Assembly: GCA_035699145.1 (NCBI GenBank)
Contig: DASSBB010000076.1
Location: 18,815-82,814, forward strand
Source: Marmoricola sp.
GTDB lineage: Bacteria > Actinomycetota > Actinomycetes > Propionibacteriales > Nocardioidaceae
Reading direction: 5' to 3'
DNA: 64,000 nt
Of this stretch, positions 2,218 through 61,757 are shown piece after piece (the first letter of the stretch is position 1; each line of letters opens with the position of its first letter). Under the pieces are notes generated by a model, which searched no databases, was not told the origin of the DNA, and saw only the letters and a program-made list of their open reading frames with translations. The position numbers and the translations under genes are program-made.

Positions 2218-3462
2218 TCAGCGCGCCCCGGTCACCATCCCGGTCACCTCAGCCACGAACCGGTCTCCCACGCCCGCGGCGCGGATCAGTCTGCCGAGCC
2301 TTGCCGCGCCCTCGGCGTACGAGGGGTCGGTGAGCAGCTCGGAGACGGCTCGACCGATGCGCTCCGGTGTCGCGGTCGGACGGAGCCGGGCACCGGCGTG
2401 GTGCCGGACGACTCGGGCAGCGTTGTCCGGCTGGTCGCGCCCGAGCGGGAGCACGAGCACCGGTCGGTCGGCCGCGAGAGCCTTGATCACCGTGCCGTGG
2501 CCGCCGTGCGTCACGACGAGAGAAACGTGCGGGAGCACCCGCGAGTGGGGTACCGACGGCACCAGCTGGATGCCCGGCCGAGGCGCGGCCACCGGACGAA
2601 GCGCAGGGCCAGTGGTGACGAGGGCCCGGACCTGGCACCCGGCGAGGCCGGCGACCACCCGTTCCAGGAGCTCGGGCGCTCCGCGGGTCCGGGCGGTGGA
2701 CAACCCGACGAGGACCAACGGGTCGTCACCGGGCGGCAGCGGAACTGCGTCACCGGCCCACTCCGGATCGTCCAGGATCGGCCCGACGTAGCGGACGTTG
2801 GCCGGGCGGTCACCGGCCGGGAAGTCGAAGGCCTCGGCGGTGAGAACGAGGACGCGATCGGTTCGGTCCAGCTGGGACCACACATGGTCCAGGGCCTCGA
2901 GCCCCAGCTCGTGGCGAGTGGCATTGAGCTGGCGCAGGCCGAGATCCGTCAACCGGTTCGCCACCCGCGGCAGCACTTGGTCGCGCAGCTGGCCCAGAGG
3001 ACCCGTCGCGGGCGACAACCCGCTGCCGAACGGCGGCTCGCCCGGGGTCGGGCGAAGGTACGGACCCGGTATCAGCGCCGCGGACGGGATGCCGAGCGAC
3101 TCCGCTGCGACCAGTGCCCCCATCAGTGCCACGTCCGCCACCACTGCGTCGACCGGTTCGGCCTCGGCCGCGGCGCGGACGTCGGCGGCCAAGGCCGCTG
3201 ACGGCCCGGTGAACAGGCCGTCGAGCAGCCGCCGGAGCAGGGTGAGCGGGTTGGTGACCTCCCAGTCGGCGATGCGCTCCTGAACCGGGTACGGCGCCCG
3301 CTGCCACGGCCTGAACCGGGCACCCACAGCGGCTGCTGCGCCGCCCACGCTCGGCTCCCCCAGCACGGTGACCGAGTGGCCGGCCTCGATCAGCCGGCGG
3401 GCGGCGCCGACCTCGACCGGCACCGTGCCTCCGCCGTCCCAGAGGACCATGAGGACGTGCAT
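2218..3462 (-). CDS. Family 1 (GT-B, MGT/UDP-glycosyltransferase-like) glycosyltransferase
   Basis: This is the C-terminal 414 codons of track ORF 2218..4650, starting MHVLMVLWDGGG at ATG 3462. The nucleotide-sugar binding motif VTHGGHGTVIKALAADRPVLVLPLGRDQPDNA lies near the C-terminus. Confidence 0.75.
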   Translation of the reverse strand: MHVLMVLWDGGGTVPVEVGAARRLIEAGHSVTVLGEPSVGGAAAAVGARFRPWQRAPYPVQERIADWEVTNPLTLLRRLLDGLFTGPSAALAADVRAAAEAEPVDAVVADVALMGALVAAESLGIPSAALIPGPYLRPTPGEPPFGSGLSPATGPLGQLRDQVLPRVANRLTDLGLRQLNATRHELGLEALDHVWSQLDRTDRVLVLTAEAFDFPAGDRPANVRYVGPILDDPEWAGDAVPLPPGDDPLVLVGLSTARTRGAPELLERVVAGLAGCQVRALVTTGPALRPVAAPRPGIQLVPSVPHSRVLPHVSLVVTHGGHGTVIKALAADRPVLVLPLGRDQPDNAARVVRHHAGARLRPTATPERIGRAVSELLTDPSYAEGAARLGRLIRAAGVGDRFVAEVTGMVTGAR

Positions 3463-3652
3463 CGCTCCCGAGCGTGGGGGCCTCAGGGCCGCTACGAGAA
3501 GGGCCGGAGGTCGCGGAAGCGTCAGGGCCATCAGCCAGTGGCTCAGGTCAGTGTCGACGAGGAACGCGCTGCCCTCGGCTTCGTGACGGGCTCGGCCACG
3601 CGGTGGCCGCCTGCGCCTTTCCCGTGGCGGAGCAACATGGTGTGATGCTTGC

Positions 3653-12216: not shown

Positions 12217-13773
12217 ATGGGAACCTTCGTCGACTGGCTGCAGAACGACACAGCCGGCTTGCTCACTCTCGCTGCGCTCAGCATCGTGGTGCTGCTCGTT
12301 GCCATCATCCGGTTCAAGATCGAACCCTTCATCGTGCTGCTCATCGTCGGCATCCTCGTCGCCCTCGCAGCGGGCTTGCCCATCGTCGACCTCGTCGGGA
12401 CGCCCACCACCGCGGGCGAGTCGCTCCTCGAAGTCGGGTTCGCCGGCATCCTCGGCCACATCACACTGATCATCGGGCTCGGCACCGTGCTCGGCGCGAT
12501 CATGGAGCGCTCCGGCGGCGCCGACGTACTCACCAGCAAGCTGCTGCACCTTTTCGGGCCCAAGGGCGCCCCGCTCGCGATGGGCCTGACCGGCCTCATC
12601 CTGGGCATCCCCGTCTTCTTCGACATCGGCATCTTCGTGCTCGCCCCCCTCGTCTACGTGGCCGCCAAGCGCGGCGGCCGGTCGCTGGTCCTCTACGCGA
12701 TGCCGATGCTCGCCGGCCTGTCGGTCACCCACGCGTTCCTGCCGCCCCACCCTGGCCCTGTCGCTGCCAGCGGGCTGCTCGGCGTGAGCCTGGGGTGGAT
12801 CATCGTCATCGGTGCCGTCTGCGGAATCCCGGCATGGTTGGTCGCAGGCGTCTGGTGGGGCTCCTTCATCGGCAAGCGGGTGCACATCGAGGTGCCGGAC
12901 GAGTTCATCTCTGCCGAGCTCGAAGGGCACCAGTCTGAGGTCTTCGATGGGCATGACGGAGGGCTGACCAGCGACGACCCGTCCGCAGCCGGTCGAGCCG
13001 AGTCCGCCCGCCCGACCCCCGGGGCAAGCCGCTCGATGGTCCTCGATGACACCGCGGAGCCGGTCCGCGATCCCGTGACCACGTCCCGGACCGCACTACC
13101 GCCCCCATCGCTCGGCCTGGTCGCGCTCGTGATCCTGGTCCCGATGGTGCTGATCCTCGGGGCGACCGTCGGGAGCGTCACGCTGGACGACGGCTCGGAC
13201 CTGCGTCAGCTGCTGATCTTCCTCGGCACACCGGCGATCGCGCTCACCATCGCCGTTCTGCTCGCGCTGTGGCTGCTCGGCACGCGCCGCGGCATGACCA
13301 CGACCGAGCTCGGCCACATCAGCGGAGAGTCCCTCAGGCCGATCGGGATGATCCTCCTCGTCGTCGGTGCGGGAGCCTTCTACGGCGCCGTCCTCCGCGC
13401 CACCGGCATCGGGGACGCGGTCGCCAGCTCGATGGAGGCCGGGGGGCTCCCCGTCATCCTGTCGGCGTACCTCATCAGCTGCGCACTACGGCTTGCCCAA
13501 GGCTCTGCCACGGTCGCCATCGTGACCACGGCCGGCATCATCCAGCCCGTGCTCGAGGGGACCAGCTACTCGCAGGCGCAGATCGCGGTCATCGTGATCG
13601 CTATCTCGGCCGGCTCGATCATCGCCAGCCACGTCAACGACGGCGGCTTCTGGATCATCGCCAAGTACTTCAACATGTCGGTCAAGGAGACCCTGCTGAC
13701 GTGGACGGTCCTGGAGACCATCCTGTCGGTCGTGGGGTTCCTTGCGGCCTCGGTGGTCTGGCTCATCGTCTAG
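12217..13773 (+). CDS. GntP family (gluconate:H+ symporter-like) permease
   Basis: 518 aa, polytopic. The conserved GntP C-terminal block is SHVNDGGFWIIAKYFNMSVKETL. It has an unusually long hydrophilic central loop (residues ~235-295). A TAGGAG RBS is present. Confidence 0.8.
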   Translation: MGTFVDWLQNDTAGLLTLAALSIVVLLVAIIRFKIEPFIVLLIVGILVALAAGLPIVDLVGTPTTAGESLLEVGFAGILGHITLIIGLGTVLGAIMERSGGADVLTSKLLHLFGPKGAPLAMGLTGLILGIPVFFDIGIFVLAPLVYVAAKRGGRSLVLYAMPMLAGLSVTHAFLPPHPGPVAASGLLGVSLGWIIVIGAVCGIPAWLVAGVWWGSFIGKRVHIEVPDEFISAELEGHQSEVFDGHDGGLTSDDPSAAGRAESARPTPGASRSMVLDDTAEPVRDPVTTSRTALPPPSLGLVALVILVPMVLILGATVGSVTLDDGSDLRQLLIFLGTPAIALTIAVLLALWLLGTRRGMTTTELGHISGESLRPIGMILLVVGAGAFYGAVLRATGIGDAVASSMEAGGLPVILSAYLISCALRLAQGSATVAIVTTAGIIQPVLEGTSYSQAQIAVIVIAISAGSIIASHVNDGGFWIIAKYFNMSVKETLLTWTVLETILSVVGFLAASVVWLIV

Positions 13774-24036: not shown

Positions 24037-24095
24037 GCGTGACTCCCTCCTCCGGGGGCGAACGCTACTCCGGGACGGGTCCGTACGATCGACCC

Positions 24096-25412
24096 GTGCC
24101 CGATCCCCGGCGGTCCACGCCTCGCACCGACCACGTGCTCGCCGACCCGCGCCTGGAGGAGCCGCTGGCCCGGCTCGGCCGTCCCCTGGTCAAGCAGGCG
24201 GTCGTCGCTGCCCTCGACCGGTGCCGCAGCGGCGAGGTCGCTCCGACCGAGGTGGCCGACGTCGTGCTGTCATCGCTGCCGGCCTCGGCGACCTCGATGC
24301 GCCGGGTCGTCAACGCCACGGGCGTCATCGTGCACACCAACCTCGGCCGCGCTCCGCTCTCCGCGGCCGCGGTCGACGCCGTCACGGTCGCGGCCGGGGC
24401 CACCGACGTGGAGCTCGACCTCGCCACCGGCCGCCGTGGTCGACGGGGTCGGTCTGCGATGGCGGCGCTCGCGGCCGCCGTACCTCTCGCCGAGGCGGTG
24501 CACGTGGTCAACAACGGCGCTGCCGCACTGGCGCTCGTCACGAACGCGTTCGCCCAAGGGCGCACCGTGGTCGTCGCCCGCGGCGAGATGGTGGAGATCG
24601 GCGACGGCTTCCGGATCCCCGAGCTGGTGGAGGCGGCCGGCGGCCGGCTGCGCGAGGTGGGTACGACGAACCGCGTGCACCTCTCCGACTACGAGCGCGC
24701 CGTCGACGACGACACCGCCTTCGTGCTCAAGGTGCACCCGTCGAACTTCGTGGTGCGAGGGTTCACCTCATCGGTACCGGTGGCCGGGCTGGCGACGCTG
24801 CCCGTGCCGGTCGTCGCCGACATCGGCTCGGGGTTGCTGCGGCCGCACCCTCGGCTGCCGGACGAGCCCAGCGCCGCCGCTGCGCTGGGCGACGGCGCGG
24901 CGCTGGTCACCGCGTCCGGCGACAAGCTGCTCGGAGGGCCGCAGTGCGGGCTCGTGCTCGGCCGGGCTTCGCTCGTCGAAGTGCTGCGGCGGCACCCGCT
25001 GGCACGGGCGATGAGGGTCGACAAGCTGACGTTGGCCGCGCTCGAGGCGACGCTCACGGGGCCACCGACGCCCGTCGCGCAGGCGCTGGCGACGCTACCC
25101 ACGGCACTGCGGGATCGCGCGGCGCGGGTGGTCGACGCGCTCGACGGTGTCGTGGAGGCTTCGGTCGTGAGCTCCGAGGGCGCCGTCGGTGGCGGTGGTG
25201 CACCGGAGGTCTCGCTGCCGAGTGCTGCGGTCGCCCTGCCCGAGGCCCTGGCGCCGGCGCTCCGGCTCTGCACCCCGGCTGTCGTCGGGCGCGTGGAGCA
25301 GGGCCGGTTGCTGCTCGACCTCCTCGCGGTCGCGCCCGAGGACGACGTCGCCCTGGTCGAGGCGGTACGCCGCGCCGCGGCCGGGCCGGAGGGCTTTCCG
25401 ACGTGCACGTGA
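24096..25412 (+). CDS. selA: L-seryl-tRNA(Sec) selenium transferase
   Basis: GTG 24096. Carries [19 protein letters not shown] and the PLP-lysine block [14 protein letters not shown], the SelA signatures. 438 aa. Confidence 0.9.
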
Positions 25413-27133
25413 TCGCCACCGCGGGCCACGTCGACCACGGCAAGAGCACGCTCGTCCAGGCGCTCACGGGCTCCGACCCGGACCGCTTGGCGGAGGAACG
25501 ATCCCGGGGGCTGACGATCGAGCTGGGCTACGCCTGGACGGCGCTGCCGTCCGTGGGTGAGGTGGCGTTCGTCGACGTGCCGGGCCACGAGCGGTTCGTC
25601 TCCACGATGCTGTCAGGCATCGGGCCGGTCCCTGCCGTCCTCCTCGTCGTCGCCGCCGACGACCCCTGGATGCCGCAGGCTGCGGAGCACCTCGCGGCGC
25701 TCGACGCCCTCGCGGTCGGGCACGGCGTGGTCGCGGTGACGCGCTCGGACCTCGCGGACCCGGCGCCGATGGTGGCGCGGGCACGTCACGAGCTGGCCTC
25801 GACCTCGTTGGCCGGGTCCCCGGTCGTGCCGGTCAGCGGGGCCACCGGGATGGGGCTCGACGAGCTGCGGCAGCGGCTCGTGGCGATGCTCGCCGCACTG
25901 CCCGCACCCGACCCGTCGGCGGACGTCCGGCTCTGGCTCGACCGTTCGTTCCACGTCAAGGGAGCGGGCACGGTGGTGACCGGGACGCTGCCCGCAGGCA
26001 GGATCCGTGTCGGGGACGTGCTCGCGGTCGGCGAGCGGACGGTGCGGGTCCGTGGCGTCCAGTCGTTGGGCAGGCCGGTCGACGAGGTGTCCGGCGTCGC
26101 CCGGGTCGCCCTGAACCTCAGTGGTGAGGACCGGGTCGCGCTGGACCGGCACAGCGTGCTCACCACCCCCTCGGCGTGGCACGAGACGGCGGCGCTCGAC
26201 GTCCGGCTCACCGGACCCGCCTCCGGACTCCCCCGTCGGCCGCTCCTGCACATCGGGGCGGTGGCGGTGCCGTCGTACTCCCGCCCGCTGGCGGACGACC
26301 TCGTCCGGCTCACTCTCGAGCGACCGCTGCCGCTGCGCGTCGGTGACCGGGCGCTGCTGCGAGACCCGGGCAGCCGGGTGGTCTGGGGGGTGACCGTGCT
26401 CGACCCGGCGCCGCCCGCGCTCGGTCGACGCGGGGCGGCGCGGGCGCGGGCGGACGAGCTGCGGCTCGTCGACGGCACTCCCTCCGTGGAGTCGGAGGTA
26501 CGCCGGCGTGGCGCCGTCCACGTCGACCTGCTCCGGCGGATCGGGGTGCCCTCTGACGGGTCCGCGTGGCTCGTGAGCGAGGAGACGCGTGCCCGGTGGC
26601 GCGCCGGCATGCGGCGGCTCGTCGAGCAGCACCACGTGGACCACCCGCTGGACGCCGGCGTACCGCTCTCCGCGCTGGCCTCGGCGCTGGGCGCCCCGGA
26701 CCCCGAGCTGCTCGCCTCCCTCGTCGAACCGCCCCTCGTGCTGGTGGACGGGCGGGTCTCCGTGGCCGGCCGGTCGACGTTGCCACCGGAGGTGGCCGCT
26801 GCGGTGAGCGAGCTGCGCTCCGAGCTCGCCGTCGCGCCGTTCGCGGCACCGACCGCAGACCGGCTGCGTGCGGTGGGGCTGAGTCCCCGAGCCGTATCGG
26901 CCGCGGCCAAGGCCGGCGAGCTGCTCCACCTCGGGGACGGGATCGTCCTCCTCCCCGACGCAGCGGACCGGGCGATCGAGCTGCTGCGGGAGCTGCCGCA
27001 GCCGTTCACGACGAGTGAGGCGCGGACCAGGCTGGGGACCAGCCGCCGCGTCGCCCTGCCACTCCTCCAGCACCTCGACCGACGACGGCTCACCCGTCGC
27101 CTGCCCGACGACCGCCGCACCGTGAATGGTTGA
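25403..27133 (+). CDS. selB: Selenocysteine-specific translation elongation factor
   Basis: GTG 25403, overlapping the selA stop by 10 nt. Carries the G1 motif [14 protein letters not shown], then DVPGHERF, with C-terminal winged-helix-like repeats. 576 aa. Confidence 0.9.
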
Positions 27134-27216
27134 GCCGCCCCTCGTGCTGGGTTGAGCCGCCCCTCGTGCTGGGTTGAGCCGCCCCTCGTGCAGGGTCGAG
27201 CCGCCCCTCGTGCTGG
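27129..27216 (+). repeat. Tandem array, 4 x 22 bp (GTTGAGCCGCCCCTCGTGCTGG)
   Basis: Units lie at 27129-27150, 27151-27172, 27173-27194 and 27195-27216. The first two are identical and the last two have 1 mismatch each. There are no spacers. The selB stop TGA (27131-27133) lies inside unit 1. Confidence 0.95.
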
Positions 27217-27292
27217 TGCGGCGGACCTCACACCGTCTGCCGCTGGCAGCGGCGGACGGACGGGGGGACGCTGGAGCCAGGAGGTGGTCCTC

Positions 27293-27766
27293 ATGAGGAC
27301 TGTCATCAGCCGGCATCCAGCACCGGCATCCGCTCATCACCCCGGGCGAGGAACTGCCGCCGTACGGCGCCGCTGGCTCCTGGCGTGGATCGGAATGGCC
27401 GCGTTGGGCGTGGTCAACGGGGTACTGCGCGAAGTGACCTACGCCGGCGCCGTCGGTGATCACACCGCCCACCAGCTGTCGACGTTCACGCTCATCGCGA
27501 TGATGGCCGCTTACGTCTGGTGGCTGCAGCAGCGGTGGCCGCTGACCTCGATGCAGGAAGCGCTGCGGATCGGTGCGTTGTGGGCAGCCATGACCGTCGT
27601 GTTCGAGTTCGGCTTCGGGCACTACGTCGACGGCGCCGCATGGTCCACGCTGCTGGCCGACTACGACATCACCCGAGGAAACCTGTGGATTCTTGTCCTC
27701 CTGACCATTGGCTCCGCGCCTGAGCTCGTGAGGCGGAGCGTCGTACCCCGCGCGAAGGGCGGTTGA
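27293..27766 (+). CDS. Hypothetical integral membrane protein (157 aa, about 4 TM helices)
   Basis: ATG 27293 with an AGGAGG RBS 8 nt upstream. Hydrophobic segments are LLAWIGMAALGVVNGVL, STFTLIAMMAAYVWWL, IGALWAAMTVVFEFGF and LWILVLLTIGSA. I recognise no family. Confidence 0.6.
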   Translation: MRTVISRHPAPASAHHPGRGTAAVRRRWLLAWIGMAALGVVNGVLREVTYAGAVGDHTAHQLSTFTLIAMMAAYVWWLQQRWPLTSMQEALRIGALWAAMTVVFEFGFGHYVDGAAWSTLLADYDITRGNLWILVLLTIGSAPELVRRSVVPRAKGG

Positions 27767-27815
27767 ACACAGCCCGAAGGGCGGTTGAACACAGCACGGA
27801 GGGCGGTTCAACACA
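27750..27815 (-). repeat. Tandem array, 3 x 22 bp, an inverted and diverged copy of the 27129 repeat family
   Basis: Units 27750-27771, 27772-27793 and 27794-27815 read GCNCGRAGGGCGGTTSAACACA. The reverse complement TGTGTTGAACCGCCCTCCGTGC matches the core TTGAGCCGCCCCTCGTGC at 15/18 positions. The stop TGA of the 157-aa ORF lies inside unit 1. Confidence 0.85.
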
Positions 27816-27820
27816 GGGGG

Positions 27821-29596
27821 TCAGGGGGTGCGGAGCTTGGCGAGCCGGGCCTCGAGGAGGGGCACCCGGTGGGCGTTGCCATGCAGCTGCACGTACCGCA
27901 TCCCGAAGAGGTCGAGGAGGGCGTCGTCGAGCCGACGGACGGCTCCGGCGGGGTACTTGTACCCCATCCGAGCGTCGATCGTCGTGTGGTCGACCGAGGC
28001 GAGCAGCCCGCCGAGCTCGTCGAGCGAGGTGATCCCCAGCTCGAGCAGCAGCCCTGCCACCCACTGGTAGTGGTCGGGGCGTGACCAGCCCGCCTCGACG
28101 AACCGCCCGGCGAGGAACGCCGCGAGCTCCTGGTCGCTGATCCGCGGGTCCTCCGAGGCGCCGTCGACCGGACGGTCCGGGAGCGCCGCCTGCAACCGGT
28201 CCCGGATCTGGGAGAACTCCCGGTCGGCGAGCTCGAGCAGCCCGGCCGCCAGCGTGAACCGCCGGTCGAGGTCGGGGGCGTGCTCCTCGGGGATCGTCCC
28301 CTTGTAGCGGATCGCGTGCTCGAACTCCGCCCACGCATGCTGCAGCACCGTCCGCACCTGCACCTGTGCCTGCCGCCCGCGGATCGCCTCGAGGGCCGGG
28401 CCGGCGCGCCCCACGTCGACGGAGACCAGCAGGTGCCGGCTGGCGTAGCCGAACCGGCCCTCGCTCGCCGTCTCCTGCCCCCAGTCCCGGTCGTCGAGGA
28501 CGACCATCTGGTCACCGAGCAGCTCGGCCACGGCCGCCACGTCGCTGTGCAGGTAGGTGATCACCCGCAGCCCGACCTGGTCGGTGATCTCCTCGAGCGG
28601 GTCCGTGTAGAGCCGCCGGCCGCCTGACGTCCGCTCGGCCTTCGCGGCGAACGAGGCGACGCTCTTGGCCCGACCGGTGACGCTGAGGTAGTTGATGCCG
28701 GCGTCGTCGAGCAGCGTCCTCACCAACGACACGAAGGTCTCCGTGGCGGCCTGCAGCTCCGGCTGCAGCTCGGCAAAGCGGCGGACCGCGTCCCGCGCCG
28801 GGTCCGCCGGCGGAGCGGGAGCGGGGACGGCCGCCGGAGCACGACGCGACGGCTCCTGTCCCTCCGGGAGCGTCGGGGTCACGATGTAGCCGGTCTCGCC
28901 GTCCCCGTAGACGGTCGTGAGGTCCGGCCGCTGGGACGAGAACAGGGCGACGTAGGCGCAGACGACGGCGTCCACCTGGTCCTCGACCTTCCGCAGGTCG
29001 CTCTTGCGCTCGGCGGCCTCGACCAGGGCCCGCAGCGAGAGCCAGGCCGGGTTGTCAGCGACCCGCAGCGGCACCGCGGCGACGTCGAGCCCCTCGAGGT
29101 GGTCCATGAGCACCAGGAGCTCCGACCGCAGTCGTTCGAGGGTCCGACCGGGCTTGTTCTTGTACTTCAGCGTCCGGCCGAGCCCGAACAGCGCCACGGT
29201 CGCCGGGTGCGGGTAGACCTCGATCGCCCGCCGTCGCGCCGTCGACGACGGGTCGGTGTCCAGCTTCAGGGCTGTCGCGATGCGGGCGGCCCGGGGGCCT
29301 CCGGCGAACTCCTTCTTGCCCGTGTTCGCCGGATGCGCTCCGGCGTCGAACCGGGCGAACACCTTGTTGAGCGCGGCCTCCGCGGGGCGGTTGCCGGTGG
29401 CGTTGGCCACGATCAGAGGGGCATCGATCGCGACGAGGCACTCCCCCTCGACGTACGGCGCCACCGCGGCCATGATCGCCGCATCGTCGCCGTGGGTCGA
29501 GACGTGCAGCAGCTCCCCCGCCCCGTCGAGGACGGCGACCCCGGTGGGCCGGTTCTGGCCCCAGGCCAGGTCGAGCCCGACGAAGTGGCCGCTCAC
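27821..29596 (-). CDS. DUF429-like (predicted RNase H-fold) domain fused to a RelA/SpoT-type alarmone synthetase domain
   Basis: The N-terminal ~270 aa (FVGLDLAWG...CLVAIDAPL...VYPHPA...EDQVDAVVCAYVA) looks DUF429-like. The central part carries synthetase motifs GRAKSVASFAAK, DQVGLRVITY, GYASRHLLV and VQVRTVLQHAWAEFEH. A helical C-terminal domain of ~150 aa follows. I prefer GTG 29596 (GTGA overlap with the channel stop) over the track ATG 29638, because third-position GC is low before 29596. Confidence 0.8.
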   Translation of the reverse strand: MSGHFVGLDLAWGQNRPTGVAVLDGAGELLHVSTHGDDAAIMAAVAPYVEGECLVAIDAPLIVANATGNRPAEAALNKVFARFDAGAHPANTGKKEFAGGPRAARIATALKLDTDPSSTARRRAIEVYPHPATVALFGLGRTLKYKNKPGRTLERLRSELLVLMDHLEGLDVAAVPLRVADNPAWLSLRALVEAAERKSDLRKVEDQVDAVVCAYVALFSSQRPDLTTVYGDGETGYIVTPTLPEGQEPSRRAPAAVPAPAPPADPARDAVRRFAELQPELQAATETFVSLVRTLLDDAGINYLSVTGRAKSVASFAAKAERTSGGRRLYTDPLEEITDQVGLRVITYLHSDVAAVAELLGDQMVVLDDRDWGQETASEGRFGYASRHLLVSVDVGRAGPALEAIRGRQAQVQVRTVLQHAWAEFEHAIRYKGTIPEEHAPDLDRRFTLAAGLLELADREFSQIRDRLQAALPDRPVDGASEDPRISDQELAAFLAGRFVEAGWSRPDHYQWVAGLLLELGITSLDELGGLLASVDHTTIDARMGYKYPAGAVRRLDDALLDLFGMRYVQLHGNAHRVPLLEARLAKLRTP

Positions 29597-31326
29597 CGGA
29601 GCTGCTCGCTGTCGCGCCGCCCGGCGAGCCTGCGCCACACCCAGCTCGAGGGCGCGAACCGGTCCTCGAGCACGTACGCCGCGGTGGGCTCCTCGGTCAG
29701 CGTCAGCTGGAGGGAGGTGCGAGCGCGCGACCGGCCGGCGATGAGCAGCTGGTCGTCGGTGCGCAGCACCACGTCGTTGTCGGGAGCCATCACCCGGGTG
29801 CCGTCGGCGCGCAGCAGCGCGAGAGGTACGGCGGGCAGCGGCTCGACCCGGAAGGCGGGGTCCCGCAGGAGGTCACCGAGGACGACGCCCTCGGTGGCGA
29901 GCCGGTCGACCAGGGCCGGCGCCCGGGCAGCGTCGAGGTGAACCCGCCACAGGTCGGGGGCACCGGTCCCGCACCTCTCGACCAGCCGGTCGAGCATCCG
30001 CCGCGACCACGCCTCGCCCTCACGAGGCACGCGAGGCAGGAACCGCATGAGCACCGGGCTGGCGATCCGCGCCAGCACCTCGTGGGCGATCACCTCCGCG
30101 GGCACCATGCCGAAGTCCACGCCCACGGCCTCGAACAGCTTCGAGTTGGCCCGACGGTTCTGCAGGGCCGCGACGAAGGCGTCCGGGTTCGCCCGGCGGG
30201 CCGCGTCGACCAGCCAGAGGTTGGTGGTGTCGTTCTCGGTGGCGGCGACAAAGCCGACCGCGTCGTCCACATCACCCGCCTCGACGACGACCGAGCTGTC
30301 CCCCTCGCCGGCCCGGACCGTGCCGCCGGTGACGCGCACCCGGGTCACCTCGAGCTCCTCGGCCTCCAGGTCGGCGGTGAGCTCGTCGCCGAACCGGCCG
30401 TGCCCGGCCACGACCCACCGGCCGCGCGGCGGGGGCACGGGCCGGTCGGGCAGCGGCGTGCCCGGGGCGCTGGTCAGCCACACCATCAGCTGGTAGGCAG
30501 CCGGCGAGCGGAGCAGGATCCGCAGGTGGTCGCCGAACCGGTCCAGCGGGTTGACCACCTCCTGCGCGGCGAAGGCTCGCATCCGCTCGGCGACATCACG
30601 CGAGCTCGACCTCGCGATCACCGGGAGGTCGGGCCGGAGCAGCGCGGTCGTCATCGTCACGTCGAGGTTCGTCCCGTCGTCGCCGGTCAGGGCGACCACT
30701 CCCTCACAGTGCCGGTGCCCCAGCCCGGCAAGCGTCATCCGGCTGGTGTCCCGGGCGTCGCCGAGCAACGCCGGTGCGTCGGCGGTGTAGGAGTCGAGGT
30801 CGACCTGGGAGACCCGCCTCTCCTCGCGGTCGATGACCACGAAGCGTCGGCCCATGTCGTCGAGAGAGCGCGCGAGCATCTTGGTCGCGTTCCCGTAGCC
30901 GACGAGGAGGAGGAACGGCTCGCCCATCCGGCGTACCGCCTTGTAGAAAGCCCGGCGCGCGAGGGCCTGGCGGAAGGCGGTGTCCTGCATGAGCGAGAGC
31001 AGGGAGCCGATCGCGTAGGCCCACCCGACCACCGAGAGGAAGATGACGACCGTCACCCACATCCGCTGCTCGGTCGTGAAGGGGTGCGGGATCTCGCCGA
31101 AGCCGATCGTCGACGCCGTGTAGGTCATGAAGTAGAACGCCTCGAACAGGCTCAACCGGTCAGGCCGCCCCTGGTCGTCGACGCCGGGGACCAGCGACAG
31201 CCCGAGCACGCTGACGGCGAAGATCGAGATGAGCACGATGAGCGGCACGCGCATCCGACGCATGACGAGGACGAGCCCGGCCGAGGCGAGCTGGCCGCGG
31301 ATCTCCGGGAGCGGGGTGGGGGCCAC
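29593..31326 (-). CDS. Two-TM potassium channel with tandem RCK/TrkA-N domains
   Basis: The pore helix plus filter is FYFMTYTASTIGFGE. Two Rossmann loops are present: LLLVGYGNATK and WVVAGHGRFG. 577 aa. The start is uncertain; an internal Met at residue 22 is possible. Confidence 0.8.
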   Translation of the reverse strand: MAPTPLPEIRGQLASAGLVLVMRRMRVPLIVLISIFAVSVLGLSLVPGVDDQGRPDRLSLFEAFYFMTYTASTIGFGEIPHPFTTEQRMWVTVVIFLSVVGWAYAIGSLLSLMQDTAFRQALARRAFYKAVRRMGEPFLLLVGYGNATKMLARSLDDMGRRFVVIDREERRVSQVDLDSYTADAPALLGDARDTSRMTLAGLGHRHCEGVVALTGDDGTNLDVTMTTALLRPDLPVIARSSSRDVAERMRAFAAQEVVNPLDRFGDHLRILLRSPAAYQLMVWLTSAPGTPLPDRPVPPPRGRWVVAGHGRFGDELTADLEAEELEVTRVRVTGGTVRAGEGDSSVVVEAGDVDDAVGFVAATENDTTNLWLVDAARRANPDAFVAALQNRRANSKLFEAVGVDFGMVPAEVIAHEVLARIASPVLMRFLPRVPREGEAWSRRMLDRLVERCGTGAPDLWRVHLDAARAPALVDRLATEGVVLGDLLRDPAFRVEPLPAVPLALLRADGTRVMAPDNDVVLRTDDQLLIAGRSRARTSLQLTLTEEPTAAYVLEDRFAPSSWVWRRLAGRRDSEQLR

Positions 31327-45073: not shown

Positions 45074-45502
45074 CTACAGGGCGGTGCCCGGGCCGAGCGG
45101 CGCTTCCCAGCCGGCCAGCCGCTCCGCGATCGCCTCGACCTCCGTCGCACGGCCCGCGGCGACGGCCATGGTGATGTCGAACAGCTCGTCGTCGGTGGCG
45201 GTCAGGCGCACGCCGTTCAGGGCGTAGAACAGGAGGGTCGCCGCGATGCCCACGCGCTTGTTCCCGTCCAGCAGTGGGTGGGAAGTCACGAGCGAGTGCA
45301 GCAGGGCGGCAGCCTTGCCAGCCAGTCCGGGGTAGGCCGGCGCGCCGAACAAGGTCGTCCGTGGCCGGGCGGCCGCGGCCATCAGCAACCCTGCGTCGCG
45401 GATGACGTGCCGGCCGCCGAGCTCCGTCTCGATGAGCACGAGCAAGTCCTCGTCGTCGAGGTGCTCGACGTCCTGAGGGTCAGGAGGTGCTCCGCCGCTC
45501 AC
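45074..45502 (-). CDS. doc: Doc (death-on-curing) family Fic-fold toxin
   Basis: 142 aa with the Doc variant of the Fic motif, HPLLDGNKRVG. The GTG start overlaps the upstream antitoxin stop (GTGA). Confidence 0.85.
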   Translation of the reverse strand: MSGGAPPDPQDVEHLDDEDLLVLIETELGGRHVIRDAGLLMAAAARPRTTLFGAPAYPGLAGKAAALLHSLVTSHPLLDGNKRVGIAATLLFYALNGVRLTATDDELFDITMAVAAGRATEVEAIAERLAGWEAPLGPGTAL

Positions 45503-45783: not shown

Positions 45784-46386
45784 ATGGGCGCCATGACCGC
45801 CCCCGACCTCCCCGAGACCGACGGATCCGTGCTCCCCGAGGGCGGCTCGGTGCGCCCGATCACCCGCTGGGGCGAGCCGGTCATGCACCGTCCGCAGCGG
45901 CCGGTCACGGAGTTCGACGCCGAGCTGCGATCGCTCGTGGCCGACATGGTCGCGACGATGTACGCCGCCGACGGGGTCGGCCTCGCCGCCTGCCAGGTCG
46001 GCGTGGACCTCTCGGTCTTCGTCTTCGACTGCCCCGACGAGGGCGGCACGATGGTCAAGGGGGTCGTGTGCAACCCGACGCTCGTCCTCCCGGAGGGCAA
46101 GGAGCGGCGGCTCGACTCCGACGACGAGGGGTGCCTGTCGTTCCCCGGAGCGTTCGTGGAGTGCCCCCGCCCCGACCGCGCCGAGGTGCACGGCCAGGGG
46201 GTCGACGGCTCCGCCGTCCACGTCGTCGGGACCGGCCTCCTGGCACGGTGCCTCCAGCACGAGACCGACCACTGCCACGGCACCGTCTTCGGCGATCGGC
46301 TCAGCCGGCGTACCTACAAGAGGCTCCAGAAGCAGCACGACGCGGCGACCGAGGAGTACCCCCACGACTGGCCCACCCCCCGTTGA
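45784..46386 (+). CDS. def: Peptide deformylase
   Basis: Carries GVGLAACQ, EGCLSFPG and QHETDH, the three Def motifs. An alternative ATG lies at 45793. Confidence 0.9.
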   Translation: MGAMTAPDLPETDGSVLPEGGSVRPITRWGEPVMHRPQRPVTEFDAELRSLVADMVATMYAADGVGLAACQVGVDLSVFVFDCPDEGGTMVKGVVCNPTLVLPEGKERRLDSDDEGCLSFPGAFVECPRPDRAEVHGQGVDGSAVHVVGTGLLARCLQHETDHCHGTVFGDRLSRRTYKRLQKQHDAATEEYPHDWPTPR

Positions 46387-46476
46387 GCCGCCCCTCGTGC
46401 TGGGCCGAGCCGCCCCTCGTGCAGCAATGAACCGCCCCTCGTGCCGGTCCAGGACCAGCACGAGGGGCGGCTCAAC
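46382..46476. repeat. Cluster of the 22-bp repeat family: 3 direct units plus 1 inverted unit
   Basis: The direct units are 46382-46403 GTTGAGCCGCCCCTCGTGCTGG, 46404-46425 GCCGAGCCGCCCCTCGTGCAGC and 46426-46447 AATGAACCGCCCCTCGTGCCGG. After a 7-nt spacer comes the inverted unit CCAGCACGAGGGGCGGCTCAAC at 46455-46476. The last two units form a 13-bp perfect stem (CCGCCCCTCGTGC/GCACGAGGGGCGG) between convergent genes. The def stop TGA lies inside unit 1. Confidence 0.95.
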
Positions 46477-46492: not shown

Positions 46493-49018
46493 TCAGTTCG
46501 TGGTGCCGACCCTCACGGTCATCCACTTCTTCCGGTTGACCTTCCCGACCTTGACCGTTGTCCCGGTCTCGGGCACGTTGACGCTGTACCAGCCGGGCTG
46601 GTAGCGGCCGTCGTGGTGACCCGTGGCGGCGTGCTCGTCGCGGTTGTACCACCACCTCGAGGTGTCGTCGAACGTCCTGACGCCGCGCGATGCCTCGATC
46701 CGGAACCGGTCACCCTCGTAGTGCAGGTTGAACCCCTTCACCCTGCCCGGCGCGAACGCCGAGTCGAAGCTCATCGTCCGCGGCCGGACCAGCGTGCCGT
46801 CCGGGTTGTGGTCGAACTCCGGGTGCGCGTCCACCGGCAGGATGAGCCCCTCACCAGGGTGGTCGCCGACGTTGTTGTCGGTCTGCGAGGTGTCCCAGTA
46901 GCTGATCAGGGCACCGGCACGGTAGCGGTAGAACTCGGCCCGGTCCGCCAGCCTGCCGGTGAACCCGAGGTTGTACACGTGGGCGAGCAACTTGTCCCGC
47001 TTCACGTACTGGCGGTTGTCGACGATGTAGGCGTTCAGGAACCCCCGGAGCCCGTTGCCGGTGCTGAGCCGGAAGCCGTCGAACTGCCAACCCGCCTCCG
47101 ACTCCCCGTCTCCGATGAGCGCGCCGTCCAGGGAGATGTCGTCCACCTGGAACCCGCTCAGGACAAAGGCGCCGTCGGTGAGGTACCGCCACCTGATGGC
47201 GTTCGCGGTCTCCGGCACGGTGGCGGTGAGGTCGACCCACCCGTCCGAGACACCGGTGATGCCGGTGCCGTCGGGGTTGGCGCCGCTGAAGTCCTGCCCG
47301 GTGTAGCTGAGGTTGGTCTCGAGCGACTGCCAGGTCTCGCCGCCGTCGCTCGAGGCCTCGAGGAACGCGTAGTCCCAGCCTTCCTCGATCTCGTAGCGGA
47401 CCTGCGCCGTCAGCTCCCCGCCGCCGTCCACCGCAGTGGTCAGCCGGTTGTCCAGGTCGTTTCCGGCCTCGCTGTAGTAGAAGCTCTCACCGCACCCGTC
47501 GCACGGGGGGCCGAGCGTCTCCTGGACCTGCTTGTCCGGAAGGATCACGATCAGCGCGTTGTTGCCCTTCTTGGTCACGAGCTGTGCCGGGCGGAGCCGA
47601 TGGGTGGAGCGCTTCCCTGCCCGCGCTACGGCGTAGTCCAACCACCCGAGCTGGAACTTGTCCCAGGCGCCGAACGGCATCGGCCGGTCACCGATGCCCT
47701 GGTCGCGCTTCGCGGTGCCGCGCGACTGGCTCATGAGCGACCAGAAACCGACGCTGTTCTCCGCGCCCCCGGTGTTGCCGGAGGTGTCGTAGAGGTCGGG
47801 GAGCCCCAGGTCGTGGGCGTACTCGTGGGCGAAGACGCTGAGACCACCGTTCTCCGGCTGGATCGTGTAGTCGTTGACCCAGATGCCGATCGGGTTGTTC
47901 GGGATCTCGACGGCGCTGCCCTCCGGGTCCGAGATGCCACCCTCACCGATGTCGAAGCCGCCCTTGGCAGGGCCGGGGCCCGTGCCGAGGGGCTGGATCT
48001 GGGCGTTCCAGCGGTGGCTCCAGATCGCGTCGGTCGCGAAGGTCGGGTCACCGTCGGCCTGGTCACCACCGGCGTGCACGACCTGCATGTGGTCGATGTA
48101 GCCGTCGGGCTCGCGGAAGTCGCCGTCCTCGTCGTAGTCGTACCGGTCCTCGATGTCGAAGGTGCTGAGGTAGTTCTCGATCCGGGCCGAGGTCCAGCCG
48201 GCGTCGAGCTTCTTCTGGACCCAGAACGCCATGCCGTCCCTCAGCAGGAACCACGTGCTCGAGCACACGATGTCGCCGCAGTAGTCACGGCCGTAGCGGG
48301 CCTCGTTGAACGGCACGCGCACCTTGGCCGTGACGTCGCCGGTGAACGAGTACTTGCCGAGCGACTGCTGCTCGTAGAAGTTCCGCATCCGCTTGAAGTA
48401 CATGTTCTCGTAGTGCTGGCGGCTGTAGTTCTTCTGCCACAGGGTGGTGTTGTCCACGGCGCGGTTCGGCTTCGGGATCTCGTTGAACCGCGGCCCGTCG
48501 TACCGCTGGGGGGAGCCGTCGGAGGGGAAGGTGCAGCTCTCCGGTGCTGTGTCCGCGGTCTCGTCGCAGAAGGCCGAGTGCCGGGTGTCCCCGAACTCGA
48601 CGAGCAGGGCGAAGATGCGGTCCCTGCCGTCCACGGCCGCGCGGCCGTGGACCCCTCGCTTGATCCGCTCGCTGACACCCTTCCCGCCGTCGAGGAGCCG
48701 CTGCTTCACGGCCTCCTGGTTGCGGCGCTCGTACTTGAGGCGCCAGCTCGGCGTCAGGTTGTCGCTGAAGGAGCGGGGGGAGTCGGCCGACCTCTCGGCC
48801 GGGGCGGGGGCCGGCGCTGCGCCGACCTGTGCGGTGGTTCCGGGTAGTGCTAGGGCTACGCCCGTTAGTGCGGCTGCCGCGATGGCGGCGACGCGTCTTG
48901 TCTGCAAGACCCCTCCTGGTGGGCTTGTGGCCGAAACCGCACCCGCCCAGCCCGTGGATCCACGGAGCGGGCGCGGAAGGTAGCGGCTCATCCGACCTCT
49001 CGACGGACGACCTTGCAA
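46493..49018 (-). CDS. Secreted M6 family (immune inhibitor A-like) metalloprotease
   Basis: Carries the zinc motif HEYAHDLGLPDLYD and a signal-like region RRVAAIAAAALTGVALALPGTTAQ. The likely true start is Met at 48991. Confidence 0.8.
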   Translation of the reverse strand: MQGRPSRGRMSRYLPRPLRGSTGWAGAVSATSPPGGVLQTRRVAAIAAAALTGVALALPGTTAQVGAAPAPAPAERSADSPRSFSDNLTPSWRLKYERRNQEAVKQRLLDGGKGVSERIKRGVHGRAAVDGRDRIFALLVEFGDTRHSAFCDETADTAPESCTFPSDGSPQRYDGPRFNEIPKPNRAVDNTTLWQKNYSRQHYENMYFKRMRNFYEQQSLGKYSFTGDVTAKVRVPFNEARYGRDYCGDIVCSSTWFLLRDGMAFWVQKKLDAGWTSARIENYLSTFDIEDRYDYDEDGDFREPDGYIDHMQVVHAGGDQADGDPTFATDAIWSHRWNAQIQPLGTGPGPAKGGFDIGEGGISDPEGSAVEIPNNPIGIWVNDYTIQPENGGLSVFAHEYAHDLGLPDLYDTSGNTGGAENSVGFWSLMSQSRGTAKRDQGIGDRPMPFGAWDKFQLGWLDYAVARAGKRSTHRLRPAQLVTKKGNNALIVILPDKQVQETLGPPCDGCGESFYYSEAGNDLDNRLTTAVDGGGELTAQVRYEIEEGWDYAFLEASSDGGETWQSLETNLSYTGQDFSGANPDGTGITGVSDGWVDLTATVPETANAIRWRYLTDGAFVLSGFQVDDISLDGALIGDGESEAGWQFDGFRLSTGNGLRGFLNAYIVDNRQYVKRDKLLAHVYNLGFTGRLADRAEFYRYRAGALISYWDTSQTDNNVGDHPGEGLILPVDAHPEFDHNPDGTLVRPRTMSFDSAFAPGRVKGFNLHYEGDRFRIEASRGVRTFDDTSRWWYNRDEHAATGHHDGRYQPGWYSVNVPETGTTVKVGKVNRKKWMTVRVGTTN

Positions 49019-55083: not shown

Positions 55084-56204
55084 GTGGCGCGCGGCCCCTC
55101 ACCCTCGGCGGGGTCCGACGGGTCGGTGGTGAGCCCGGGCGTCGGGGTGTGCGAGGACGGGTCGGCCGCCTGCGCAGAGGCGATCGCATCCGCGACCACC
55201 GACGACGTCGAGCGGCGCTCCTGGTCCGACTCGCGCTCGATCGCCACCGACTCGCCCATGTCGACCCGGTGCCGCGGCCCGTCGGTGTCCTTCGGGATCC
55301 CGGGGATCTGGCCGATCGAGGAGCCCAGCCCCTCGAGCGCCCGGCCGATCTCCGACGGCACGATCCAGACCTTGTTCGCGTCGCCCTCGGCGATCTTCGG
55401 CAGCATCTGGAGGTACTGGTAGGCGAGCAGCGACTGGTCCGGCTGCCCGTCGTGGATCGCCTGGAAGACCGTCTGGATCGCCTGGCCCTCACCCTGCGCC
55501 CGCAGGATGCGCGACTGACGCTCGGCCTCGGCGGCGAGGATCTGCGCCTCGCGCTGGCCCTCCGCGTTGAGGATCGCCGACTGCTTGTTGCCCTCCGCGG
55601 TGAGGATCGCGGACTGCCGCTGCCCCTCGGCGGTGAGCACGACCGCTCGCTTGTCGCGGTCGGCGCGCATCTGCTTCTCCATCGCGTCCTTGATGGACGG
55701 CGGCGGGTCGATCCCCTTGATCTCCACCCGGTTGACCCGGATCCCCCACTTGCCGGTGGCCTCGTCGAGGACCGTGCGGAGACCGGTGTTGATCTCCTCC
55801 CGGCTGGTCAGCGTCTGCTCGAGGTCCATGCCGCCGACGATGTTGCGCAGCGTCGTCATCGTGAGCTGCTCGACCGCCTGGATGTAGTTGGCGATCTCGT
55901 AGGTCGCCGACACCGCGTCGGTGACCTGGAAGTAGATGACGGTGTCGATCGAGACGACGAGGTTGTCCTCGGTGATCACCGGCTGCGGCGGGAACGAGAC
56001 GACCTGTTCACGCAGGTCGATCATGTAGCGCACCCGGTCGACGAAGGGCAGCACGATGTTGAGCCCCGCGGGGAGGGTCGACTTGTACTTGCCGAACCGC
56101 TCGACGATGCCCGCACGCGCCTGCGGGACGATCCGCACCGTCTTGGCCAGGGCGAGGACCACCAGGAGCAGCAGCAGCAGGAACAGCACGCCGACGACTT
56201 CCAT
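55080..56204 (-). CDS. SPFH/Band 7 (stomatin-like) membrane protein
   Basis: ATG 56204. It has an N-terminal TM helix, then the SPFH core VRIVPQARAGIVERFGKY...VNRVEIKGIDPP, and coiled-coil repeats (AEGQRQSAILTAEGNKQSAILNAEGQREAQILAAEAERQ). Confidence 0.9.
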   Translation of the reverse strand: MEVVGVLFLLLLLLVVLALAKTVRIVPQARAGIVERFGKYKSTLPAGLNIVLPFVDRVRYMIDLREQVVSFPPQPVITEDNLVVSIDTVIYFQVTDAVSATYEIANYIQAVEQLTMTTLRNIVGGMDLEQTLTSREEINTGLRTVLDEATGKWGIRVNRVEIKGIDPPPSIKDAMEKQMRADRDKRAVVLTAEGQRQSAILTAEGNKQSAILNAEGQREAQILAAEAERQSRILRAQGEGQAIQTVFQAIHDGQPDQSLLAYQYLQMLPKIAEGDANKVWIVPSEIGRALEGLGSSIGQIPGIPKDTDGPRHRVDMGESVAIERESDQERRSTSSVVADAIASAQAADPSSHTPTPGLTTDPSDPAEGEGPRAT

Positions 56205-60998: not shown

Positions 60999-61703
60999 TC
61001 AGTGCCCCATGCCGAGGCCGCCGTCGACCGGGATGACCGCGCCGGTCACGTAGGCGGCGCCGTCGGAGGCGAGCCACAGCACCGTGCTCGCGACCTCGTC
61101 GACCGAGGCGTAGCGGCCCAGGGGGATCTGGGCGAGGTACTCCGCCTTCTTCTCCTCGGGAAGGACCGAGGTCATCTCGGTCTCGACGAAGCCGGGGGCC
61201 ACCACGTTCGTGGTGATCGACCGGCTGCCGAGCTCGCGTGCGAGCGACCGGGCCATCCCGACGAGCCCGGACTTGCTGGCCGCGTAGTTGACCTGGCCGG
61301 CCGAGCCGAGGAGCCCGACGACCGACGAGATGAGGACGATCCGGCCGCGGCGGAGCCGCAGCATCCCCTTCGCCGCGCGCTTCGCGACCCGGAACGACCC
61401 GGTGAGGTTGGTCTCGATGACGTCGGACCACTCCTCGTCGCTCATCCGGAGGACGAGGGTGTCCTTGGTGATCCCGGCGTTGGCGACGAGCACCTCGACA
61501 GGGCCCTGCGCCTCCTCGACCTCGCCGAACGCCCGGTCGACGTCAGCGGCGTCGGTCACGTCGCAGCGGACCGCGAGGACCCCGGCCGGGGGCTCCCCGC
61601 TCCGGTAGGTGACGGCGACCTTGTCGCCGTTGGCGACGAACGCCTCGGCGATCGCCTTGCCGATGCCGCGGTTGCCGCCGGTCACGAGTACCGATCTGGA
61701 CAC
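60999..61703 (-). CDS. fabG: 3-oxoacyl-ACP reductase
   Basis: 234 aa. Carries VTGGNRGIG, NAG and YAASKSGLVGMARSLARE. Confidence 0.9.
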   Translation of the reverse strand: MSRSVLVTGGNRGIGKAIAEAFVANGDKVAVTYRSGEPPAGVLAVRCDVTDAADVDRAFGEVEEAQGPVEVLVANAGITKDTLVLRMSDEEWSDVIETNLTGSFRVAKRAAKGMLRLRRGRIVLISSVVGLLGSAGQVNYAASKSGLVGMARSLARELGSRSITTNVVAPGFVETEMTSVLPEEKKAEYLAQIPLGRYASVDEVASTVLWLASDGAAYVTGAVIPVDGGLGMGH

Positions 61704-61719
61704 CGGTGCCCCTCTCGTC

Positions 61720-61757
61720 GTGGAACGCTGTGGAACGCTGTGGAACGTCGTGGACGA
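61720..61757 (-). repeat. Phased 10-bp tandem repeat immediately upstream of fabG
   Basis: The plus strand reads GTGGAACGCT GTGGAACGCT GTGGAACGTC GTGGACGA. On the coding strand this is CGTCCAC GACGTTCCAC AGCGTTCCAC AGCGTTCCAC, ending 17 nt upstream of the fabG GTG. Confidence 0.9.

Follow-up and report, generated by a model that had tools for sequence, protein, structure and literature searches.

The window analyzed here is a 64-kb stretch of a Marmoricola sp. contig from a soil metagenome assembly, and 99% of its sampled words were found within one sequencing run. It has a G+C content of 71.5% and an ordinary chromosomal gene content, including urease, sugar catabolism and selA-selB genes, the peptide deformylase gene def and a gene for an InhA-like M6 protease; the nearest relatives of the SelB and protease proteins are from Nocardioides and Marmoricola. 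A 22-bp unit, GTTGAGCCGCCCCTCGTGCTGG, with the core GAGCCGCCCCTCGTGC, is repeated at three places in this window: after selB (array 1), beside the stop codon of a gene with DUF429 and RelA_SpoT domains (array 2) and between the convergent def and protease genes (array 3). These arrays are members of a 22-bp repeat family that is real and dispersed.

The 22-bp unit and its arrays in the window

Matches to GTTGAGCCGCCCCTCGTGCTGG with three or fewer mismatches numbered seven in the window, compared to 0.00 expected from 100 dinucleotide-preserving shuffles. Tandem Repeats Finder reported, at a period of 22, 4.0 copies at 27128-27216 (score of 164), 2.9 copies at 27753-27816 (score of 107) and 2.7 copies at 46385-46444 (score of 78). 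A position-weight matrix was derived from 30 units and scanned over the 64-kb window and over shuffles. Eleven intergenic units and one extra copy, located in selB, scored between 20 and 32.5 bits, in comparison to a shuffle maximum of 15.5 bits, and no further copies were detected in the whole 64 kb. An initial reading of the same letters, made without database searches (the sequence-only reading), had reported three clusters of the 22-mer. All three were present and none occurred in shuffles, with the limits of array 2 being refined to those given in Table 1, but that reading had overlooked the twelfth copy in selB, the stop codons lying inside units and the sense orientation of array 2 with respect to the DUF429/RelA_SpoT gene. 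Four window units, distributed over two loci 19 kb apart, were identical in all 22 bases, and the inter-core letters within array 1 were TGGGTT.

All three arrays were found to lie against, or to overlap, stop codons. The stop codon of selB (TGA, 27131-27133) forms bases 3 to 5 of the first unit of array 1, and the stop codon of def (TGA, 46384-46386) occupies bases 3 to 5 of the first unit of array 3, in the same register as at selB. The units of array 2 read in the same direction as the DUF429/RelA_SpoT gene on the minus strand and start 8 nt past its stop codon (27821-27823), while the inverted unit of array 3 starts 16 nt past the stop codon of the protease gene (46493-46495). The plus-strand gene for a membrane protein, between arrays 1 and 2, terminates within array 2 at a TGA (27764-27766) supplied by GGTTGAAC, and hence its last residues (...PRAKGG) are repeat encoded.

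The arrays are non-coding, as their 22-bp period is not divisible by 3 and the signal of codon position is lost, with the third-position G+C signal collapsing across the array at 27.06-27.30 kb. As each unit carries a TGA, three window-type units close all three reading frames. A coding repeat was ruled out by the period and by the loss of codon signal, and a CRISPR array was ruled out by the spacerless structure, there being no unique spacers between the repeats. No Rfam 15 family was detected over the arrays, and the sole match at gathering score in the whole window was tRNA-Sec.

Table 1. Repeat arrays, hairpins and adjoining genes in the window (L-numbers, here and in the text, denote loci or contigs outside the window)
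Feature	Positions	Strand	Description
selB, selenocysteine-specific elongation factor	25403-27133	+	Abutted by array 1
Unit look-alike, GTCGAACCGCCCCTCGTGCTGG	26723-26744	+	In selB coding sequence; 20 of 22 bases identical; encodes VEPPLVL
Array 1	27129-27216	+	Four spacerless direct units: GTTGAGCCGCCCCTCGTGCTGG twice, ...CAGG and GTCGAG...
Non-repeat hairpin, CCGTCTGCCGCTG GCA GCGGCGGACGG	27233-27259	+	12-bp stem; outside the repeat family
Membrane-protein gene, 157 residues	27293-27766	+	Between arrays 1 and 2; no Pfam match
Array 2	27747-27812	-	Three diverged units of the type GTTSAACCGCCCTYCGNGC: GTTGAACCGCCCTCCGTGCTGT, GTTCAACCGCCCTTCGGGCTGT and GTTCAACCGCCCTTCGCGCGGG
DUF429 and RelA_SpoT-domain gene	27821-29638	-	Abutted by array 2; synteny kept in L058-L060
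def, peptide deformylase	45793-46386	+	Abutted by direct part of array 3
Array 3, direct part	46382-46447	+	Three units, sense to def
Hairpin core, third direct unit and inverted unit	46432-46470		13-bp perfect G+C stem, extending further
Array 3, inverted unit	46455-46476	-	Perfect consensus copy, sense to M6 protease gene
InhA-like M6 metalloprotease gene	46493-48907	-	Convergent with def

Dispersal of the family and turnover of units at the selB locus

The abundance of the repeat in the source soil metagenome was examined as word depth (the depth given by the assembler) in each array relative to its flank. Word depths of 475 to 604 were observed in array 1 against 11.7 in the flank, of 271 in array 3 against 11 and of 130 to 149 in the diverged array 2 against 8.5, the last of these values indicating that the array 2 subfamily is itself multicopy. 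Overall, the excess over the flanks was 15- to 50-fold, and many array-bearing contigs of this metagenome differed in their flanks. A search for exact matches to two cores 22 bp apart detected eight loci in species-representative genomes, which comprised six contigs of one Marmoricola metagenome-assembled genome (MAG), the isolate Nocardioides caldifontis YIM 730233 and the actinobacterial MAG MFD01275.bin.1.42. The same search detected eight loci in soil metagenome contigs (JGI), giving a total of 16, and two further arrays were present on a 22-kb stretch of the MFD01275 MAG (L057). Many matches were at contig ends, as expected from the breaking of short-read assemblies by such arrays. A 16-mer scan of viral contigs produced 39 isolated single matches and no tandem pair, and hence there was no support for a phage origin. 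The family is therefore not confined to the window loci, in agreement with the dispersal that the sequence-only reading had proposed.

The orthologous selB locus was compared between the window and five independently assembled contigs (L058, L059, L060, L063 and L064), whose SelB proteins exhibited 83 to 94% identity. All five contigs kept the gene order of the window, with the full order of selA-selB-(membrane protein)-DUF429/RelA_SpoT being visible in the three that were long enough. An array was present at the same place after selB in all six strains and was followed by the same right-hand flank (TGCGRCG...CTCACAC). A comparison of copy number between strains, as envisaged in the sequence-only reading, detected two units in L060 and in L064, three in L058 and in L063, four in the window and six in L059. 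The units of each array had substitutions in common that were specific to that array: GAGCCGTCCC in L058, GAGCCGTCGC in L059, GACCCGCCCC in L060, GAGCCGTCAY in L063 and GAGTCGCCCC in L064. The 3' half of the unit drifted freely between strains. The second array, on the side of the RelA_SpoT gene, was present in the window and in L058-L060 with three units each and an even greater divergence, and a GCCGTC variant was common to both arrays, which are ∼550 bp apart, in L058 and again in L059.

The presence of shared substitutions particular to each array and genome indicated a turnover of units through slippage or unequal exchange, together with their homogenization. The selB array thus behaves as a minisatellite with concerted evolution, in which the loci are inherited and the units inside them turn over. 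In the window, the selB units are the same as the def units, and the selB arrays of the sister strains have diverged; this combination implied either homogenization between loci, by conversion or re-seeding, or a constraint common to both loci. No array was present at the selB genes of N. caldifontis and of a Marmoricola MAG, which is explained by the different gene order there and by the overlap of selB with a convergent gene. A large internal deletion was observed in the membrane-protein gene of L059 (about 3440-3620). Considered with the ending of this gene inside array 2, the deletion suggested that the gene is dispensable and is situated in an unstable, repeat-flanked spot.

The copy within selB is a look-alike in a conserved protein motif. 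Residues P444 and L445 of this motif were invariant in 13 of 13 aligned SelB proteins, and the neighboring proline was present in most of them. Insertion of a unit into selB was ruled out by the absence of an insertion or deletion and by the conservation of the motif. The E and V residues and the identity at the DNA level were limited to the clade that carries the array ∼400 bp downstream, and the selB codons of L060 were identical at 24 of 24 positions to the window's fourth unit plus 2 nt. The look-alike could have arisen by chance, the probability of which was roughly estimated as ∼1e-3 to 1e-4, or by conversion of a short patch of selB by the array, with CCGCCCCTC as the seed.

Polarity, hairpins and possible roles of the arrays

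The anatomy of ∼20 independent arrays was surveyed. The arrays were spacerless and head to tail, with two to seven units, a fixed 22-bp period and no linkers, and the units read in the same sense as the gene at whose stop codon they lie. The position of the first sense unit ranged from a 7-nt overlap with the stop codon to ∼35 nt past it and was usually within 20 nt (window arrays 1-3, L001-L008, L010-L012, L015 and L057a). This adjacency to the stop codon held even when a long intergenic region followed (L006 and L008). Approximately 18 gene-array pairs were sense as opposed to three that were antisense. A C-TGA-C stop context was observed at ∼11 of the 17 array-adjoining stops (window, L001-L015 and L057) compared to roughly 20% expected from composition, this being a small count that is due in part to the letters of the first unit itself. 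In Escherichia coli, the leakiest stop context is UGA-C.

Head-to-head pairs or terminal palindromes were present at eight arrays (window array 3, L003, L004, L005, L012, L013 and two in L057), and the inverted arrangement was plus-then-minus in all eight, the reverse order never being found. The arms meet head to head because each of two convergent genes has its own sense units. Arrays of the MFD01275/Ga0126311 lineage often ended in a near-perfect palindrome, GAGCCGCCC-R-CCATGG-Y-GGGCGGCTC, which was detected in L004, L013 and twice in L057, and L011 was cut by a contig end at the point where the palindrome would begin. Each genome had its own uniform inter-core letters: all loci of the MFD01275/Ga0126311 type had CCGGTC, and the letters in the Marmoricola MAG were AGGGCC-like. 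A second, unrelated dispersed element (...CTTCCCACGGCGTMCTG...CTCCCCAYGGC...GACCCRTGGGGAG...), which is intergenic and contains a hairpin, was noted in the MFD01275/Ga0126311 lineage at L013 (about 270-350), L014 (about 525-610) and L057 (about 12500-12590); it adjoins a 22-bp array in L013 and L014 and stands alone in L057.

Folding was examined for arrays with and without an inverted unit. In array 3, pairing of the inverted unit with the third direct unit yields the stem of 13 perfect base pairs (46432-46444 with 46458-46470) that the sequence-only reading had described; as the 13 nucleotides separating the arms pair further among themselves, the effective loop is ∼3 nt. Each of the three direct units is a possible pairing partner of the inverted unit. 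The 121-nt def/protease spacer had predicted folding energies of -68 kcal/mol (plus strand, z = -5.3) and -80.5 kcal/mol (minus strand, z = -7.1). Arrays with only direct units folded no better than shuffles (z = -1.67 and -1.08), and the single unit is not a palindrome, its dyad consisting of no more than GAG/CTC. Overall, strong hairpins arose only where inverted units meet. No U-tract follows the def/protease hairpin on either strand, and because of this absence the hairpin is not a canonical intrinsic terminator. A consensus terminator scan detected no terminator-like sites at 45.5-47.5 kb or 26.5-28.5 kb, and a consensus promoter scan detected nothing at either array locus. The non-repeat hairpin listed in Table 1 sits between array 1 and the ribosome-binding site of the next gene and is probably the selB transcript's own 3' stem.

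Two observations related to the arrays as RNA. The sense strand of the arrays contained 698 C and 524 G residues, an overall C/G ratio of 1.33 (range, 0.92 to 1.92). Metatranscriptome contigs were detected that join units to the stop codons of other genes (for example, ...GAGTGACCCCGCCCCGGCC directly followed by GAGCC), and these provided weak evidence that units are transcribed at other loci, weak because carry-over of DNA is possible.

We favor, with a probability of roughly 60%, a joint explanation in which the arrays are lineage-specific, non-coding, non-autonomous repeats of the Nocardioidaceae that are minisatellite-like and that may provide, at the RNA level, a hairpin for the 3' ends of transcripts. 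Under this explanation, the direct units would be unstructured and mainly a by-product of array expansion by slippage, tolerated only just past a stop codon, where they may add mildly C-rich untranslated RNA. A partial inverted unit closing an array, or the meeting of two convergent arrays, produces arms that are always head to head and a long G+C hairpin that lacks a U-tract. The def/protease hairpin could be a bidirectional 3'-end element, acting either as a barrier to 3' exonucleases or as a factor-assisted terminator that works without a U-tract, and might insulate the two convergent transcripts. A function of this hairpin as terminator or stabilizer, as first proposed from the letters alone, is plausible.

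Several points weigh against this joint explanation. The def/protease hairpin has no U-tract, and mycobacterial RNA polymerase terminates poorly in vitro at hairpins of this kind. The metatranscriptome contigs are assembled, unstranded and fragmentary and cannot place 3' ends. Two arrays, L014 and the array at 17.4 kb of L057, adjoin gene starts in 5' or divergent regions, and L016 is antisense after a stop codon, with its contig ending there; these exceptions indicated that the location of the arrays is biased and not absolute. The genome-wide survey consists of ∼20 independent arrays and metagenome depth rather than a complete genome. Finally, neutral slippage alone does not account for the strict sense polarity or for spacer letters that are uniform across a genome.

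One alternative is that the repeats are REPIN-like mobile elements, in which the inverted pair or terminal palindrome is copied by a single-copy, domesticated Y1/HUH transposase, either a RAYT or its analogue in actinobacteria, that is encoded elsewhere in the genome. The direct arrays would then represent arms that have decayed or have been duplicated in part. The dispersed, extragenic and multicopy distribution of the repeats, the fixed head-to-head geometry of the inverted pairs and the ending of four MFD01275/Ga0126311 arrays in one near-perfect palindrome are all consistent with such elements. The uniform variant in each genome also resembles the effect of a REPIN master sequence, and the four identical units 19 kb apart, found while the selB arrays of sister strains had diverged, point in the same direction. 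However, the unit is non-palindromic, units are mostly head to tail and a GTAG-type head is absent. Arrays that are polar with respect to transcription, even when flanking convergent pairs, are not predicted for a single-strand transposase dependent on the replication strand, and the identical outer boundaries of the selB array in six strains indicated that this array was inherited and not re-inserted. The sequence-only reading had recommended looking for a RAYT gene, but a Pfam scan of the ∼50 predicted genes in the 64-kb window detected no transposase, integrase, RAYT or Y1/HUH protein, and the RAYT/REPIN papers that were found make no mention of Actinobacteria. On balance, we regard a REPIN-like origin as unlikely.

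A selected module of the 3' untranslated region, read in trans as RNA sites for Rho (a C-rich pad) or for another RNA-binding protein, was likewise judged to be improbable. If the unit co-evolved with such a factor, the polarity of the arrays and their uniformity across a genome would both be accounted for. The sense orientation and stop adjacency, which persist in L006 and L008 despite the long downstream space, the 44 to 132 nt of unstructured array sequence, the excess of C over G on the sense strand and the lineage-specific variant common to neighboring arrays in L058 and L059 would all be in keeping with this module. The C/G skew is nevertheless weak, being absent from window array 1, L058 and L059 (0.92 to 1.03), the 3' half of the unit drifts without restraint between strains and some arrays are located in 5' regions. 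Furthermore, with only ∼550 bp separating the arrays that have a variant in common, local gene conversion is a sufficient explanation for the sharing.

Active maintenance of the arrays by a dedicated trans-acting system, in place of passive slippage, would jointly explain the sense polarity, the proximity to stop codons, the exclusively head-to-head inversion and the uniformity of units despite divergence between strains. Candidates for this system would be a RAYT counterpart in actinobacteria and a factor, coupled to the termination of transcription or of translation, that recognizes or writes the 22-nt unit. We consider its existence to be quite doubtful.

It is very unlikely that the arrays are DNA-level binding sites for a nucleoid-associated protein or a topoisomerase (comparable to gyrase at BIME-2) positioned on one helix face at gene ends. 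An exact 22-bp period, equivalent to approximately two helical turns, was kept in every lineage, and the arrays are found where genes end or converge, which are sites at which positive supercoils accumulate. A site read in DNA would, however, need no sense orientation, the unit has no dyad symmetry, and neither copy number nor the 3' half of the unit is well conserved. Chance similarity, an assembly artifact or a coding sequence has a negligible probability, as nothing beyond the metagenome-assembly origin of the window speaks for it and it was refuted by the zero matches in shuffles, by the recurrence of the architecture in independent assemblies, including an isolate genome and five orthologous contigs, and by the frame and composition analysis.

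Relation to known repeats and other features of the window

Small interspersed repeats are well studied in Proteobacteria and, as mycobacterial interspersed repetitive units (MIRU), in Mycobacterium but hardly in other Actinobacteria. Among known systems, the 22-bp family is closest to MIRU in organization and to REP/BIME in location and hairpins, and it is a member of neither. MIRU, which were reportedly described by Supply et al. in 1997, are units of ∼40 to 100 bp in operons, and they contain small reading frames whose translation is coupled to the start and stop codons of their neighbors. Both families come from the same phylum and consist of dispersed, intergenic, direct head-to-tail copies. 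In both, the units are oriented with the flanking genes and overlap their translation signals, here the selB and def stop codons in the first unit, and copy number varies between strains, here from two to six at selB. In contrast to MIRU, the present unit is 22 bp long, which is not a multiple of 3, contains no reading frame and has no sequence similarity to them; its arrays are past stop codons, including those between convergent genes, and its inverted copies form hairpins. MIRU are mentioned in PMC12548453.

The likeness to REP/BIME that was suggested in the sequence-only reading held for position and failed on structure. The 22-bp repeats resemble REP, BIME and REPIN in being short, G+C-rich, extragenic and multicopy, often near stop codons, with a consensus particular to the lineage, and they resemble REP in that inverted pairs form hairpins. 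REP hairpins stabilize upstream mRNA in E. coli. The differences are that the unit is asymmetric, the arrays are mostly direct, spacerless and polar with respect to transcription, the direct arrays do not fold and no RAYT or other transposase gene is present in the window; relative to BIME, there is neither alternation nor linker motifs. In the Proteobacterial REP/BIME/REPIN-RAYT systems, a REP is an imperfect palindrome, the orientation alternates within a BIME and a REPIN is an inverted doublet associated with a RAYT (PMC3116915, PMC3337134).

A looser parallel is provided by two kinds of heptamer repeat. Like the 22-bp family, these comprise one short unit arranged head to tail without spacers at many intergenic loci per genome, and a post-transcriptional role has been proposed for them; their units are 7 nt long as opposed to 22 nt. 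One kind is the cyanobacterial STRR, which are short tandemly repeated heptamers. To our knowledge, neither kind is tied to the 3' side of stop codons and no hairpin-forming inverted partners have been described. The other kind is represented by the intergenic TAACTGA direct repeats of Beggiatoaceae (PMC4679880). The array 3 hairpin can also be compared with a class of terminators. In the def/protease spacer, a strong G+C stem without a U-tract lies directly downstream of convergent genes. Hairpin-only terminators of this form have been proposed for high-G+C Actinobacteria, and their termination activity is disputed; they are locus-specific sequences and not a repeat family.

No account of the repeat was found in the literature searched, which agrees with the sequence-only reading's impression that it was not previously described, and no paper was found in which the core sequence appears in such a setting or a repeat family of Nocardioides is described. 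The family is apparently an undescribed member of the bacterial intergenic repeats, with a function proposed from sequence. It combines features that are usually separate, namely, minisatellite direct arrays, REP-like hairpins, strict polarity relative to the gene upstream and units that overlap stop codons. As concerted evolution is measurable at an orthologous locus, the family presents a tractable case for studying the spread of short repeats in a bacterial chromosome and the maintenance of their uniformity, and it offers a test of whether hairpins without U-tracts define mRNA 3' ends in high-G+C bacteria. The arrays could also be utilized as strain-typing markers for Nocardioidaceae.

The remaining observations concern the neighborhood of the arrays and other parts of the window. 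The best relative of the protease exhibited 81% identity and kept the def-protease synteny with a gap of 88 bp; in the next-closest relative, the synteny differed and no array was present there. A short distance 5' of def, a Fic/DOC-family gene is encoded on the opposite, minus strand (45074-45502). A formate-dehydrogenase-like Molybdop_Fe4S4 gene fragment is present together with selD and tRNA-Sec at the window's left end (384-2200), and the selenocysteine machinery is therefore in two parts, this end and selA-selB (24039-27133) being 22 kb apart. Two further tandem repeats were detected. A 10-bp direct repeat, GTGGAACGCT, with 3.6 copies in an intergenic position (61719-61754), lies immediately upstream of a gene for a FabG-like short-chain dehydrogenase (60999-61703, minus strand) and could be an operator or promoter element. 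A 33-bp tandem repeat at 55504-55637 is an ordinary coding repeat, which is translated into repeats of 11 residues (such as LTAEGQRQSAI) in the C-terminal region of an SPFH/Band_7 protein.

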